Positions 6,524-12,196 of a stretch of DNA of 64,000 bases are shown here, in pieces. A program made the translations under genes and the position numbers. Position 1 is the first letter of the stretch; each line of letters opens with the position of its first letter. Source of the DNA: Escherichia coli (GTDB lineage Bacteria; Pseudomonadota; Gammaproteobacteria; Enterobacterales; Enterobacteriaceae); assembly GCF_003018115.1 (NCBI RefSeq), contig NZ_CP027457.1. The stretch is one strand, 5' to 3'. Under the pieces are notes generated by a model. The model was given only the letters and a program-made list of their open reading frames with translations, was not told where the DNA came from and searched no databases.

Positions 6524-7429
6524 TTACATCTCCTGCGGTACGACCGATTTCGCCAGCAACCATTCACGAAATTGCTGCAAGTGCGGTGAGTCAGACTTCT
6601 CTTCCTGCCACGTCATAATAAAACGATTACCGGTACGAATAGGCACATCACAGGGGATCACCATATCGCCACTATCCAAATCATGTTGAATAGCGAACCG
6701 TGGTAACAGCGCCACGCCGAGATTAGAGCGCACGGCGGCAATCAGCATTGAAAGCAAATCGAAACGTGGTCCGTTGTTGACCAGCGGACTGCTAACGCCA
6801 GATAAAGCAAACCACTCTTCCCAGCCAGTAATACGGGTGCTTTGATGCAGAAGTGGTAACTCAGTAAGCAGTTCTGCCACTGACAGTTTTTGATCGGACA
6901 TTGCAAGCAAACTGCCGCTGCATACCGGCAAAATCTCCTCATCAAAGAGATATTCTACTTCCGCCCAGGGCGCGCAAAAATTTTCGCGCATAATGACAGC
7001 ATCGTACTCCCGATTAAGAAAATCGCCGTTATTAGCTAAAGAATGAATATTAACAATAATATCGGGATGTAACTTTGTGAATTCATGTAAATTTGGGATC
7101 AACCAGTGGGTACTAAAAGTAGGATTAACGGCAAGTTCAATAACCTGAACCGTAGGCTGCCAGGTCATAATGGTATTGGTATCGCGTTCCAGCTTATTTA
7201 ATGTTTCTTTTACTATCCCCAGGTAATACTTCCCTGCATCATTAAGAAAAATGCGTTTTTTAGAGTGTGAAAATAACGGAGTACGTAAAAATTCCTCCAG
7301 CGCACTTACTTGTCTGAATACTGCACTTTGGGTTAACGCTAACTCCTCTGCCGCTCTGGTATAACTTTCATGACGTGCGACGACCTCAAAAGTCACCAGC
7401 AGTTCCGTTTTAGGTATTTTCCCTCGCAT
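6524..7429 (-). CDS. LysR-family transcriptional regulator, 301 aa
   Basis: N-terminal HTH region (LTQSAVFRQVSALEEFL) and the usual ~300 aa length. Convergent with the pathway operon. Confidence 0.85.
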   Translation of the reverse strand: MRGKIPKTELLVTFEVVARHESYTRAAEELALTQSAVFRQVSALEEFLRTPLFSHSKKRIFLNDAGKYYLGIVKETLNKLERDTNTIMTWQPTVQVIELAVNPTFSTHWLIPNLHEFTKLHPDIIVNIHSLANNGDFLNREYDAVIMRENFCAPWAEVEYLFDEEILPVCSGSLLAMSDQKLSVAELLTELPLLHQSTRITGWEEWFALSGVSSPLVNNGPRFDLLSMLIAAVRSNLGVALLPRFAIQHDLDSGDMVIPCDVPIRTGNRFIMTWQEEKSDSPHLQQFREWLLAKSVVPQEM

Positions 7430-8194
7430 AATGCCTTCCGTGAAAAAAATAACAATTCAAAAAATTATTTTATAAAAAATAGTAGTGCTAATGAATATCA
7501 TAATTCAAATAAACAAACCAGTCAGCTATATGTCCAACCAGAAAAATAAAGTGACAATAATCCTAAAACAGAAATTTCACCTCAGTTATCCGCATGCAAT
7601 ACTTTAAAGCTATTATTGCAAGAATATTATTCATATACATGAATATACTCTAAATAACTCGAGTTGCAGGAAGGCAACAAATAATGAATTTCCAGAAACT
7701 TACATAAGTCAGTGGCCAGGGTGAGCGAACATCGATGCAGAACATGCAACTTGAAGTATGACAAGTATACAATGATAAATTTAGATACCCTATGTTATAT
7801 ATTATCTATGTCTGGTTAAATTGAATGAGTCATGGCCTTAAAAGACTTCGCAAAAGATAATTTCTCTTTAACAATAAGCCAGATTTACCACTTGTAAAAA
7901 TTGCTATCGCCACATACACTACGCGCGTTTTCTTTCCCTTTTGCTGGCTGCTGACCGGAAAGACAAAATTACCCTCGCAATACAGGGGGTTTTTTAACGT
8001 CTATATTTCAGGACAGCGTTATTCATCATCTTTCAAGGCTTGATAAAGCCTTTCTGCGCAAAGGGATCCAACTTTCCCGCGCCAACAATATTGTTTCATT
8101 ATCTCGTCCATCTGGTGCCAGTGCCCGCGTACTGCTGCCGGACGAACTACCGCTGGAAGAAAAAGCAGTAACACAACTGCTTGATTTTGCAGAA

Positions 8195-9418
8195 GTGAAG
8201 CTACCAGACCACCCAGGTTATGTGCGCCAGACGTGCGCGACGCCAGATTTTCACCCCGGCAATGGCGTCCCCGTTGGCGCGGTGGTGGCCTCAACGCCGG
8301 ATTTAGTCATTCCCGCCGCCATCGGCACCGATATTTCTTGCGGCATGCGGCTGCTAACGACTGGATTAACACTTGAGCAAGCCGAAGCGAATAAAGACGT
8401 CATCACTCAGCGGTTAACGCAAGTGCTACTGCAAAATGAGCGCGATGTTCCGTTATCCGCACAAGCGTTCACTGCGCTTTTTGATGGCGGACCGGCAGAT
8501 TACGTATCGACCTTGCCATCAGCAGGTCTCTGGACACGCACGAATATCCCCCGAATGGTACAAGAGATTGACCGCTGCATTGGGCTTAACGAGCATAACA
8601 GTCATTCGCGTTATGCCCCACCCGCCCTACTGGCAACGGACCGCGCATTACTCCGCGATCCTTGTCTGGGTACGCCAGGTTCAGGTAATCATTTTATTGA
8701 ACTTCAGGTGGTTGATAGCGTGGTCGATCGCCATGTGGCCTGGCAACAAGGGCTGAAAACGGGCGATATCGTGGTGATGATCCACAGTGGATCGCGAGAT
8801 GTCGGCTTTTACGTCGGACGACGCTGGATGGACCGTGCCCGTGCTGAATGGCCCGCCGGGCATAAACACCCACAAAGCGGGTTATATGGTCTGGCTGGTG
8901 GACTGGCGGAGGAATATCTACAAGCGATGGGAATGGCGGCGCGTTACGCATGGTTAAATCGCGTGACCATTGCGGAAATGGTTCGCGTATGTTTTGCCGA
9001 TTTATTTCATCAGGATGATTCACATCTGGTGGTGGATGTGCCGCATAACATCATCCTTCGCGAACATGAAATGAATATTCATCGCAAAGGTGCAACACCG
9101 GCACACGCGGGCGCTCTGGCATTAATCCCCGGTTCAATGGGCGATTATACGTGGCTTGCGGTAGGTTGCGGCAACTCGGAGTGGTTGTGGTCATGCAGTC
9201 ATGGAGCAGGACGCAGCCAGCGTCGGCAGGCGATGCGCTCACGCGCGACTGAAGAGTCAACGCTGCCGTGGCAATGCGTCACATTGCGTGAAGAACGACG
9301 TCTTGAAGAAGCGCCAGCTGCTTATAAAGATATTGCTCCGGTTATCGAAGCCCAACAAGAAGCCGGATTGATTCAGCCTGCGGTCAGATTACGACCGTGG
9401 TTAACGTTTAAGGGGTAA
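8195..9418 (+). CDS. RtcB-family RNA ligase homolog, 407 aa from the first canonical start (GTG at 8195)
   Basis: RtcB motifs DISCGM, GSGNHFIE, HSGSRDVG, HRKGAT, SCSHGAGR. The frame stays open for 80 codons upstream (7955-8194) with no ATG, GTG or TTG, so the true start is uncertain. Confidence 0.8.
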   Translation: MKLPDHPGYVRQTCATPDFHPGNGVPVGAVVASTPDLVIPAAIGTDISCGMRLLTTGLTLEQAEANKDVITQRLTQVLLQNERDVPLSAQAFTALFDGGPADYVSTLPSAGLWTRTNIPRMVQEIDRCIGLNEHNSHSRYAPPALLATDRALLRDPCLGTPGSGNHFIELQVVDSVVDRHVAWQQGLKTGDIVVMIHSGSRDVGFYVGRRWMDRARAEWPAGHKHPQSGLYGLAGGLAEEYLQAMGMAARYAWLNRVTIAEMVRVCFADLFHQDDSHLVVDVPHNIILREHEMNIHRKGATPAHAGALALIPGSMGDYTWLAVGCGNSEWLWSCSHGAGRSQRRQAMRSRATEESTLPWQCVTLREERRLEEAPAAYKDIAPVIEAQQEAGLIQPAVRLRPWLTFKG

Positions 9419-9562: not shown

Positions 9563-12196
9563 TCAGCCAAGGCGGTAGCTAAATGTCCGTGACTGCCCCG
9601 GTAAAAATGCCCCCAGTTCCTTTAAATTATCTCTTTCCGCTGTGCTGATGCTTTCATCCATCATCGTTTGCGTACATGAAATCACCTCACGACTGAACGC
9701 AACAGTTGCCTCACAGGTTGTCGATTCTGCCGGATTAAACAGTCGCAATACCACTTCTTGCCGGTCCTCCGCTTTTTTAAGAGCGCTAATCAGGCATCCC
9801 ACAGGTGGCATTTTCAGCAAGCTATAGCTTTCCGGCACATTGAATCCGGCTTTATTTAACTTCATCGCATCCCATGGGATTTTGTTGTAACACTGTACTG
9901 GCGTCAGCCATGCACGCGCCTGCTGGGCTACACCGGCGGTCGCAGGCGTACCTGTATAACTTAATAAGCTCAGACGGCAGCTAAAGGAGCCACGTAATTG
10001 TGAATCGGGCACCGGCATTTTTATGCCTGAAGGACGTCCAGGCCTTAAAAGCAGATCTTCTTTGCCCAGTAAGCCCACGCCACGCAGCAACGTAATGGCA
10101 AAGGTTTTCTTCTCTTCACCGATGACTTCAAATTCACGTAGCCCTTCGCTAAAGACAGCCATGCCGTTACGCCCTTCCTGTAAGGCTGCATAGTTGAGCA
10201 TATTCCATACCGGAACCGGCGCTTCTTTCCAGCCTTCTTGCTGCCAGTTGTTCATTGCACTGTCGTTCACGGGGCGCGTTAGCGAACCAAACTGGGTATC
10301 TGCCAGAACACTATCGGTGTTAAAAGATGTAGGGATCAGGACGCGAAGGCGATGATCGTCAGCCTGGTTATCAAGGTTGATATCCACATCAATGCGCCTG
10401 CTGTTATGACTAAGAGTGACAACCAACTCCACCCCTACTCTACCCGTGGATTGCCGGGCGCTGCGTTCTTGCAGATTACGCGGCACCGCCATTTCATAGC
10501 GGATAACAGCCCTGCTCTGCCAGGCCTCATGAATAATCTCGCATTGCGGTTTCGCATTCGCCGAAGTAATTACCCACTCTTCTTTTGCGGGTGAATAGTC
10601 ATATTCATCACCATCATCAGAGCTTTCTTCAATTTGCAATACCCGGTCATAGCGCACACCGCTGTCTTTATCTACCAGTTGTAGCGTTCCATCCTCATTG
10701 AGCGCAATTTGCCAGAAAGCATTTTCCAGTATCCCTTCAGCGTCACTTTTTGCCGCAATCACGTTGCCAGGCTGATTCGCTTCGATATAAAGCGTTCGAT
10801 AGCCCATAGAAGGGACAATCTGGTTGATCTGAATATCAAACTCCATAAAGGGATCGTAATTACCGTAATGAACGATTTGCCGATCGATTAAGCCTGGATC
10901 GATCTCACGGGCATGGCGAATAAAATACGGTACAGGCTGACCGCGATCGTCTCGTAGATTAAACTGGCTGGCGCGCAGCCGCACAGTGGTGTTAATAACT
11001 TCTTCACGCGGCCAGGGCATCAGGTTAAACAGCACAAGTTTGTCGGCATCACTCTGTGGCATGTTATCGGCAATTTTGCGCATGTAGAAACGCAGCAGAT
11101 TATCCGCCATGTCTTCAGCCAGTTCGAAGCGGGCGACGATTTCGCGATGAACTTTGTCACTACAGCAGCAGCCGATGCTGTCGTGGGCATGATTTTTTAA
11201 GATCTCTTTCCACATTTTCTCCAGCAAGCCGTGGTGGTATTCAAAACCCAACGTCCAGGCCAGCGTTGCCAGCGGTTCCAGCAGATTAACAATCTTATTT
11301 TCAATACGTGCGTGGGCAACTTTGATATCCATGCGCGTGGAACCGATGGTGCGATGCACGCGCATATATTTGCCATCAATAAATTCACCTTTCAGGGTCG
11401 CCAGACTTTCACGCTGCGCTTCAATCTGCTCGAATACCTCTTCAAAGCGGCTCATCACAAACTTTCGTTGAGGATAAATTTCGCGAAGTTTCTCCATTAC
11501 TTCGAAGATATTTTGCTGCAATGGCATCTGGTCATGACCATTCGGCAGCAAAATCTCTTTGGTTACAGACGCTTTTTCCAGCACGTCAAAATAACTGTCG
11601 AGGCGTTTGCGTAATCCGTTTTCGTCCGCAGGTAAGTACTTACCGATGGCATAACCCAACGGCAGCACCTGCGCCGTCACTTCGCTACCGTCACTGCTTT
11701 GCCACAAAAACTCGTTTTTATCAGTACCGTGGCGCTCAGAACATCCACGCCAGAACATGGTGCGGGTAATGCCAAATCCATTGTAGATATGCGGCAGTTG
11801 CCCGGACATGCCAAAGGAATCCGGTAAATAACCTATTTTCATCGGCTCGCCAAACGCGAGGCAGTCACGCATTCCGTACATCAGATTACGGACGATGGAT
11901 TCCGCAGAAACAATCGTGGTATCGGTCTGGGTATACCAGGGGCCGATAATCAACTTGCCGGCTTCTACCAGTTTCTTCACGCGGTCTTTGTTTTCCGGTT
12001 TCACCGCGAAATAATCTTCGAGGATCGCCGTTTGCCCGTCGAGTACGTAATATTTGTATTCGTTGTCCTGTTCCAGTCGGCACAGGATCTCTTCCATATT
12101 ATTGACCAGCAGAATGCGTGACTCTTCGGTGGTGAAATACCACTCCCGATCCCAGTGCATATGCGGGGTGATGTGAACGCGAGATACCGCTTTCAT
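9563..12196 (-). CDS. mngB: alpha-mannosidase (mannosylglycerate hydrolase), 877 aa
   Basis: Length and sequence fit the family 38 glycosyl hydrolase MngB; position next to mngA. Confidence 0.9.

Follow-up and report, generated by a model that had tools for sequence, protein, structure and literature searches.

In a 64,000-nucleotide window of the Escherichia coli contig NZ_CP027457.1 (assembly GCF_003018115.1), a gene for a homologue of the RNA-repair ligase RtcB is flanked by a LysR gene at 6524-7429, which is divergent to it, and by mngB at 9563-12196, which is convergent; both neighbours are on the minus strand. An earlier note on this DNA had described a solitary RtcB homologue whose conserved N-terminus lacks a canonical start codon, and had explained it as a 5'-truncated remnant, as a gene with a non-canonical start, or as a free-standing paralog with a shortened N-terminus. 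We interpret the gene, with considerable confidence, as an intact full-length RtcB paralog in which a clone-specific substitution changed ATG to ATT, and the resulting allele as either a strong hypomorph or a very young start-loss pseudogene. Upstream of it lies a conserved structured leader RNA, to which we return below. The coding region contains the following features:

8021..9418, plus strand: coding sequence of a stand-alone ligase of an RtcB subfamily, 465 amino acids, with ATT replacing the ancestral ATG (RefSeq, alignment of the first methionine of homologues, Pfam, AlphaFold2 model).
8021..8023, plus strand: ATT at the orthologous start position, derived from ATG by G8023T (DNA alignment and allele counts).
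8010..8013, plus strand: Shine-Dalgarno-like AGGA, 7 nt 5' of the ATT, within the strand complementary to the leader loop (sequence reading).
8195..8197, plus strand: GTG, the first canonical start, an internal valine codon at residue 59 (scan of open reading frames, homologue alignment, AlphaFold2 model).

The open reading frame (ORF) with a canonical start, taken as the first ATG, GTG or TTG after a stop, is 8195..9418 on the plus strand and encodes 407 amino acids from the GTG. Upstream of this codon the frame is open from 7955, behind an in-frame TGA at 7952-7954 that overlaps part of the leader motif GCTGCTG (7947-7953), and its translation has no methionine before 8195. The observations from which the earlier note started are thus accurate: 7955-8194 holds no ATG, GTG or TTG, and initiation at 8195 leaves 14 residues before the block CATPDFHPG. 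Its AT-rich gap of 765 bp is likewise correct as the distance from the LysR gene to the GTG; to the orthologous start at 8021 the distance is 591 bp, and the G+C content over 7400-7900 is 30-33%. No Shine-Dalgarno sequence was recognised 5' of GTG 8195 on reading the sequence, and the AGGA at 8010..8013 is kept in all leaders of the E. coli group. The Prokaryotic Genome Annotation Pipeline (PGAP), as given in RefSeq for strain F9792, which is 100% identical to the window, places the start of a 465-aa "RtcB family protein" (WP_024171454.1) on the ATT at 8021.

ATT 8021 is the only start position compatible with orthology, so that a non-canonical start, one of the three options raised earlier, is the one that fits. 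When 19 homologues of 462-468 aa (57-97% identity) are aligned, each has its start methionine exactly at this codon. Proteins of this length in Pseudomonas, Burkholderia, Variovorax, Ralstonia, Chitinimonas and other genera are 57-66% identical to the 465-aa translation and cover 99-100% of it in a protein search, and orthologues of 462-468 aa range from E. coli to Pseudomonas, Burkholderia and cyanobacteria. Within the segment ahead of the GTG, R6, L7, A10, R13, G15, L38-P40, E46, A49, Q52, L53 and A57 are invariant or at least 90% conserved. The AlphaFold2 model of the full protein has a predicted local distance difference test (pLDDT) score of 91, with residues 6-57 folding confidently into a helix, three strands and a helix. 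A product initiated at GTG 8195 would be without helix 6-13, the three strands (17-21, 24-28, 34-38) and helix 47-57, all of which have a pLDDT of about 90. In a phmmer search, residues 5' of the GTG align with residues 30-49 of Pyrococcus horikoshii RtcB. Since residues 1-58 are folded in the model and have a match in the P. horikoshii protein, a GTG-initiated product would lose part of the fold.

The profile check proposed in the earlier note finds the expected domain but misjudges the N-terminus. PF01139 matches with E = 2e-95 over model positions 7-426 of 426, and the match begins at residue 85 of the frame opened at 7955, encoded at 8207, just past the GTG. Pfam coverage alone would therefore wrongly make the GTG product look near-complete. 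This coverage is one of two points in favour of a functional paralog with a short N-terminus, translated from GTG 8195 (407 aa) or from GTG 8222 (398 aa). The other is a protein of a related allele in public databases ("RtcB family protein [Escherichia coli]" of NCBI, 398 aa, 189 member sequences), which starts at the codon equivalent to GTG 8222; we read this start as evidence that the gene has been mis-started in public annotation. A short paralog is nevertheless very unlikely. No member of the family is built in this way, all full-length members having 462-468 aa with a conserved N-terminus, the segment that would be deleted is confidently folded and has counterparts in solved RtcB structures, and GTG 8195 lacks a Shine-Dalgarno sequence. 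The short N-terminus, which as a stable trait of orthologues would have spoken against a lost start, was found in none of them. GTG 8195 is an internal valine codon and not the start of the gene.

The comparison with orthologous loci recommended at the outset recovered the intact version of the gene. ATG stands at the start codon in E. coli SCU-301, wlxctx60 and strain 222, in a metagenomic E. coli contig (L005) and in two relatives of 81-85% identity (L003, L004). The flanks of the codon are identical between the window, SCU-301, the metagenomic contig and both relatives in the DNA alignment, and 12 more distant gamma- and betaproteobacterial orthologues have ATG at the same codon. Assigned starts across 78 loci are mostly ATG with a few GTG or TTG, and never ATT. 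Allele frequencies were obtained from 5426 complete E. coli genomes by megablast with allele-specific 55-mers carrying the variable base in the centre, where a mismatch removes every 28-nt seed. The ATG allele occurs in 287 genomes and the ATT allele in five, all of them isolates of enterotoxigenic E. coli (ETEC) O169:H41 or lineage 7. PGAP starts the gene at the ATT in all five, with the identical protein WP_024171454.1. The non-canonical AUU start is accordingly not conserved among orthologues but confined to one clone, in which the ancestral canonical start is gone and no in-frame canonical substitute keeps the protein.

Two trivial or structural causes can be set aside on the same evidence. 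An error of sequencing or assembly in place of an ATG would amount to a single-base difference, as is seen here, yet five complete genomes, each sequenced independently, share this base, which refutes it and leaves it with practically no probability. The ATT is a clone-specific G8023T substitution, neither a sequencing error nor a trait of the family, and a point mutation of this kind had been missed by the earlier note. The 5'-truncated remnant, in which start and N-terminus were lost in the insertion or rearrangement that made the AT-rich gap, might draw on the AT-rich region of 590 bp upstream and on the two genomic contexts of the gene within E. coli, with their break in homology at 7913. 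The homology to intact orthologues, however, spans codon 1 as well as about 100 nt of conserved leader and promoter region, and the point at which the two contexts diverge is located 5' of the leader. Nothing of the N-terminal coding region is thus missing, and it is colinear with intact orthologues, which refutes truncation and makes it hardly credible. The same colinearity through codon 1 and the leader led us to reject an upstream frameshift or fusion.

In E. coli the gene, together with about 110 bp upstream, is found either between a LysR/cobO/fumarase/AtuA-DUF4387 block and mngB or between hutU and sucD, with the homology breakpoint between both contexts at 7913 of the window. In the hutU-sucD context of E. 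coli SCU-301 (L002) mngRAB is absent, and the 85% relative L003 is also placed in the hut context.

Pairwise dN/dS (the ratio of nonsynonymous to synonymous substitution rates) against the 81-85% relatives is 0.05-0.08, and within E. coli mostly 0.10-0.17 with one pair at 0.35, which indicates purifying selection in the family. The ORF carries no further disabling lesions and keeps all catalytic motifs. Compared with four ATG-bearing E. coli copies, the codons unique to the window are the start, six synonymous changes and three conservative replacements (C161Y, P386S, F458L). So small a number of changes on the branch of the clone does not separate continued constraint from a lesion of very recent origin. 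Over 3255 bp, the window and the four other complete genomes of the clone are identical except for one single-nucleotide polymorphism in the LysR gene.

The gene is present in about 300 of the 5426 complete E. coli genomes (about 5%). In two other strains it has been damaged independently: RS571 (L092) has it split into a pseudogene fragment and a 287-aa remainder, and in SCU-172 (L093) it is cut to 198 aa and followed by different DNA. Its low frequency and these damaged copies indicate that the gene is dispensable in E. coli.

From these observations the following course of events is the most probable. A complete member of a distinct, widespread stand-alone RtcB subfamily (about 465 aa) has suffered, in the ETEC O169:H41 clone, a single G-to-T change at 8023 that turned the ancestral ATG into ATT, with no truncation involved. 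The conserved 58 N-terminal residues are still encoded by 8021-8194, and any full-length protein must initiate at AUU 8021, with the AGGA Shine-Dalgarno sequence retained 7 nt 5'. Weak initiation at AUU, or silencing, would then leave this accessory and repeatedly lost gene strongly hypomorphic in the clone, or turn it into a start-loss pseudogene of very recent origin.

AUU at the initiation position with a Shine-Dalgarno sequence upstream is shared with infC and pcnB, in which the AUU start is a long-standing regulatory feature. In the present gene AUU is a derived allele of one clone, whereas 287 genomes have ATG and the other species examined have ATG, GTG or TTG. In E. coli reporters AUU initiates at about 1-2% of the level of AUG, and infC and pcnB are the only genes with confirmed AUU starts in this species (bioRxiv 10.1101/063800); we infer a residual translation of this order for the ATT allele. 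It could be argued that the AUU was adaptive and kept by selection for a very low ligase level sensitive to initiation factor 3, as in infC and pcnB. The intact ORF in five isolates of the clone, the preserved Shine-Dalgarno sequence and the fact that AUU is the one non-canonical codon proven to work in E. coli all fit this explanation, and a second clone-specific G-to-T change at 7992 might suggest coordinated retuning. The allele is, however, present in one young clone only, against 287 genomes with ATG and in no other species, and, as there is hardly any difference among the five genomes at this locus, its persistence carries no weight. Adaptive retention of AUU is possible but unsupported, and we regard it as unlikely.

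Several points weigh against our preferred reading of an ordinary loss or near-loss of the start. The PGAP start call is by itself no evidence of translation. The small number of nonsynonymous changes is equally compatible with function from the AUU and with a lesion too recent for decay. Initiation may take place at another near-cognate codon, for example the in-frame ATA at 8003. Finally, the ribosome-binding site (RBS) would normally be sequestered by the leader, which renders the real output of both the ATT and the ATG allele uncertain.

The motifs GSGNHFIE, HSGSRDVG, HRKGAT and SCSHGAGR, recognised earlier as RtcB active-site motifs, are all present and align with metal- and GMP-binding residues of P. 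horikoshii RtcB. In particular, TDISCG, GSGNHF, HSGSR, PHN and SHGAGR align with D95, C98, N202/H203, H234, H329 and H404 of that protein, and the catalytic Asp, Cys and His positions and the GMP-accepting His are invariant in an alignment of 63 sequences. A Foldseek comparison of the AlphaFold2 model with P. horikoshii RtcB (1uc2_A) gives E = 1.5e-32 and a template modelling (TM) score of 0.82. The protein presumably has the GTP/Mn-dependent ligase activity of the family, which seals 2',3'-cyclic phosphate or 3'-phosphate ends with 5'-hydroxyl ends. The P. horikoshii enzyme (PDB 1uc2, 4dwq) is its best structural match, including the N-terminal region before the Pfam domain; the two differ in sequence (26% identity) and by an insertion at about residues 140-215 in the subfamily of the paralog.

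Two other RtcB systems of E. coli have to be distinguished from it. RtcB of strain K-12, encoded in rtcBA under control of sigma-54 and RtcR (NF007153), has the same Pfam family, fold and Cys/His/Asp metal- and GMP-binding residues. The O169:H41 paralog, by contrast, scores 207.6 bits against an equivalog cut-off of 407 for NF007153, exceeds the K-12 protein by about 57 aa, is not accompanied by rtcA or rtcR and is probably controlled by a structured leader instead of an RtcR-type activator. RtcB2 of the RtcB2-PrfH ribosome-repair module (TIGR03073; PMC9223846, PMC9304027) is likewise an extra RtcB paralog of some E. coli, but here the score of 172.2 bits is below the cut-off of 271.8 and prfH is found neither at this locus nor in 80 orthologous loci. 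These loci come from Beta- and Gammaproteobacteria, Xanthomonadales, cyanobacteria and Myxococcota, and crude clustering of ORFs, whose calls are noisy in high-GC loci, revealed no recurrent neighbour gene among them. Neighbour annotation in the window agrees with the earlier note in that rtcA, rtcR, prfH and archease genes do not adjoin the gene and mngB is convergent. The lack of a recurrent neighbour in 80 loci indicates that being free-standing is a stable property of the subfamily. The free-standing paralog suspected before is consequently real and distinct from both rtcBA/RtcR and RtcB2-PrfH, but its N-terminus is full. None of the defence-protein models of PADLOC-DB matched, and literature searches found no paper on this paralog.

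A second and more general finding is a conserved structured leader that is specific to this RtcB gene family. It precedes the rtcB-like start in Beta- and Gammaproteobacteria, Xanthomonadales, cyanobacteria and a part of the Myxococcota (loci L003, L004 and L008-L081). In the window it comprises the following elements:

7929..8023, plus strand: structured 5' leader, a diverged member of the motif upstream of the RtcB subfamily (covariance model R2).
7931..7963, plus strand: hairpin P1, TCTTTCC (7931-7937) paired with GGAAAGA (7957-7963), its loop containing the invariant GCTGCTG (7947-7953) (stem survey, covariance model alignment).
7971..7995, plus strand: hairpin P2 (ACCCTC...GGGGGT) followed by a run of six T (listed terminator-like site).
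8008..8017, plus strand: TCAGGACAGC, partner of the loop sequence GCTGCTGA in 8 bp with a GA bulge, covering the Shine-Dalgarno sequence (RNAduplex, -9.1 kcal/mol).
7892..7920, plus strand: putative sigma-70 promoter, TTGTAA (7892-7897), 17 nt, TACACT (7915-7920) (by alignment).

Among the 81-85% relatives, where dS exceeds 1, a stretch of about 105 nt 5' of the start shows stronger conservation than the gene's coding part. The leader itself has about 95 nt (7929-8020), and the same architecture is found in Pectobacterium, Xenorhabdus, Gilliamella and Snodgrassella, though the proteins are only about 55% identical. The putative promoter aligns with TTTACA-17-TAGAAT/TACAAT in the leaders of Gilliamella, Snodgrassella, Xenorhabdus and Pectobacterium; in a consensus promoter scan it falls under the threshold.

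MAFFT alignments of the leaders were structurally inconsistent, and a covariance model was therefore built from a narrow clean seed of six Gilliamella and Snodgrassella leaders and iterated, being rebuilt as R2 from its 23 proteobacterial hits. A search of 931 kb with R2 gave 36 matches with E < 0.01, all immediately upstream of an orthologous rtcB-like gene. The E. coli group is marginal throughout (15-20 bits), with 16.0 bits and E = 0.58 for 7929-8023 of the window and 17-20 bits for the sister leaders L003, L004 and L006. In a first alignment (A9, 23 sequences) three nested helices have 94.6% of cells paired, compared to 68.6% after shuffling and 48-65% in slid registers. In a second one (A10, 39 sequences) P1 is 89%, P2ext 93% and P2 92% paired, every pair with compensatory changes, including all seven of P1 and all seven of P2; since both alignments were fitted to the model, these pair counts lean toward the structure. 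A hand-padded alignment for pair counting was dropped as circular.

The stems of P1 vary by lineage while keeping the pairing: E. coli has TCTTTCC/GGAAAGA, Variovorax CTTTCTTG/CAAGAAAG and Nostoc GAGAC/GTCTC. In all, 39 different P1 stems were counted, and 87% attain a stem score of at least 5 compared to 32% at random positions. The GCTGCTG heptamer, on the 3' side of the P1 loop, occurs 56-130 nt 5' of the start (mode 69-73 nt) in 74 of the 80 loci, where 0.03 would be expected per locus. Proteobacterial P1 (7931-7937/7957-7963 in the window; also L013, L023, L034) is strongly polypyrimidine/polypurine, with a 5' strand resembling an anti-Shine-Dalgarno sequence (CCUCU, CCUUCC) and a 3' strand resembling a Shine-Dalgarno sequence (GGAGG, GGAAGG). 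Cyanobacterial stems (GAGAC/GUCUC) deviate from this pattern. Several betaproteobacterial genes of the subfamily have no recognisable Shine-Dalgarno sequence beside the AUG.

The complement of the heptamer, CAGCAGC, lies directly 5' of the start codon in proteobacteria and overlaps the start codon in cyanobacteria (AUGCAGCAGCC). Flanks of this loop/RBS pairing covary, as in UUGGCUGCU/AGCAGCCAA, UUUGCUGCU/AGCAGCAAA, CGCUGCUG/CAGCAGCG and GAUGCUG/CAGCAUC. RNAduplex energy proved uninformative for it, with random windows of the same locus as good in a median 21% of trials, and an exact-complement test was used instead. By this test, 37 of 62 leaders have a Watson-Crick complement, 6 nt or longer, at the start codon, compared to 6.3% of control windows. 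In A10, where the model did not constrain it, the pairing amounts to 70.5%. Unconstrained minimum free energy folds of the E. coli, Gilliamella, Burkholderia and Nostoc leaders pair the GCUGCUG region with the Shine-Dalgarno/start region in one long hairpin, with z-scores of -2.0 to -3.7 for these four full-leader folds. P1 competes with part of this long hairpin in some lineages, not clearly in all.

Other explanations for the conserved block were rejected. A leader peptide or upstream ORF (TTG 7941 to TAA 7995; a GTG-started ORF in Gilliamella) would yield peptides that are unrelated between genera, the conservation being at the level of nucleotides and structure. A sigma-54 promoter was discarded as no GG-N10-GC arrangement was seen on inspection. 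Universal re-pairing of the P1 3' strand with the pyrimidine tract on the RBS side was likewise abandoned; it reaches 4-6 bp in gammaproteobacterial and Burkholderia leaders and 0-2 bp in most others, so that a strict two-state switch is not established across the family.

In the O169:H41 clone the leader itself has changed. Over the leader and start region 7900-8023, the window differs from the context-matched strain 222 at two positions besides the first base compared, both G-to-T. G7992T, common to all five O169:H41/ETEC lineage 7 genomes, converts TTGTTT, the sequence of the other E. coli examined, into an uninterrupted run of six T directly after P2, and is predicted to create a better terminator-like site in the leader. 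The predicted long hairpin has -25.1 kcal/mol in the window and -29.2 kcal/mol in strain 222, i.e. it is 4.1 kcal/mol weaker.

We infer that the leader controls translation by sequestering the RBS. The arrangement resembles known RBS-sequestering leaders and the pseudoknots of translational riboswitches (SAM-II, preQ1-II, ribosomal-protein leaders), in which a conserved loop likewise pairs with the Shine-Dalgarno/start region and the helices around it covary. It differs from them in lacking an Rfam match and in that both long-range strands are conserved in sequence across phyla and do not covary freely. Searches against Rfam 15 gave no relevant match at E <= 10 in 7400-8300 of the window or at E <= 1 in six orthologous loci, and literature searches found no described rtcB leader or motif, so the leader appears to be undescribed. 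It is tempting to see in it a phylum-spanning cis-regulatory RNA, composed of P1 with GCUGCUG, P2ext, P2 and the CAGCAGC at the Shine-Dalgarno/start region, that would act as an ON/OFF translational switch for an RNA-repair ligase; we advance this as a tentative proposal, with the odds leaning slightly to the other side.

From cyanobacteria to enterobacteria the sequestering helix keeps the sequence of both its strands, which suggests that the loop may be recognised in trans, whether by a protein, by a small ligand or by an RNA that is itself universally conserved. An extended loop CGCGGCUGCUG, also written (C)GCGGCUGCUG, is found in cyanobacteria (L058-L081), Xanthomonadales (L042-L045) and Myxococcota (L057, L066, L082). 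It is the exact complement of the universally conserved 530-loop sequence of 16S rRNA (CAGCAGCCGCG, also CAGCAGCCGC(G)), the 515F/519R primer site, and the RBS-side strand CAGCAGCC is identical to that sequence. This match was noticed post hoc and could be due to chance. Should the leader indeed target the 530 loop, it would sense damage to RNA or to the ribosome directly.

Two further kinds of RNA element, apparently without relation to rtcB, were seen near orthologues. The Variovorax orthologue is followed by a tandem glycine riboswitch (L010, 7813-8020, minus strand), and three matches to a cyanobacterial heterocyst small RNA family, below the Rfam gathering score, lie downstream of a Nostoc orthologue (L059, 6863-8448, minus strand).

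The start-codon lesion that first drew attention to this gene matters little, as the mutation of one clone in an accessory gene; it is ordinary in kind and was already annotated from the ATT in RefSeq. It nevertheless holds a caution: ORF finders restricted to ATG, GTG and TTG mis-call the gene as 407 aa, and the Pfam domain alone hides the error. The conserved leader RNA is of more interest than the start mutation and deserves a separate follow-up. Little is understood of what RtcB paralogs do in bacterial physiology and of how they are regulated, and here a subfamily that is widespread among Beta- and Gammaproteobacteria, cyanobacteria and Myxococcota lacks a partner gene but possesses a conserved structured leader. 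This leader offers a concrete experimental handle on the signal by which an RNA-repair ligase is switched on, and the O169:H41 allele may serve as a natural hypomorph for the study of both leader and ligase.

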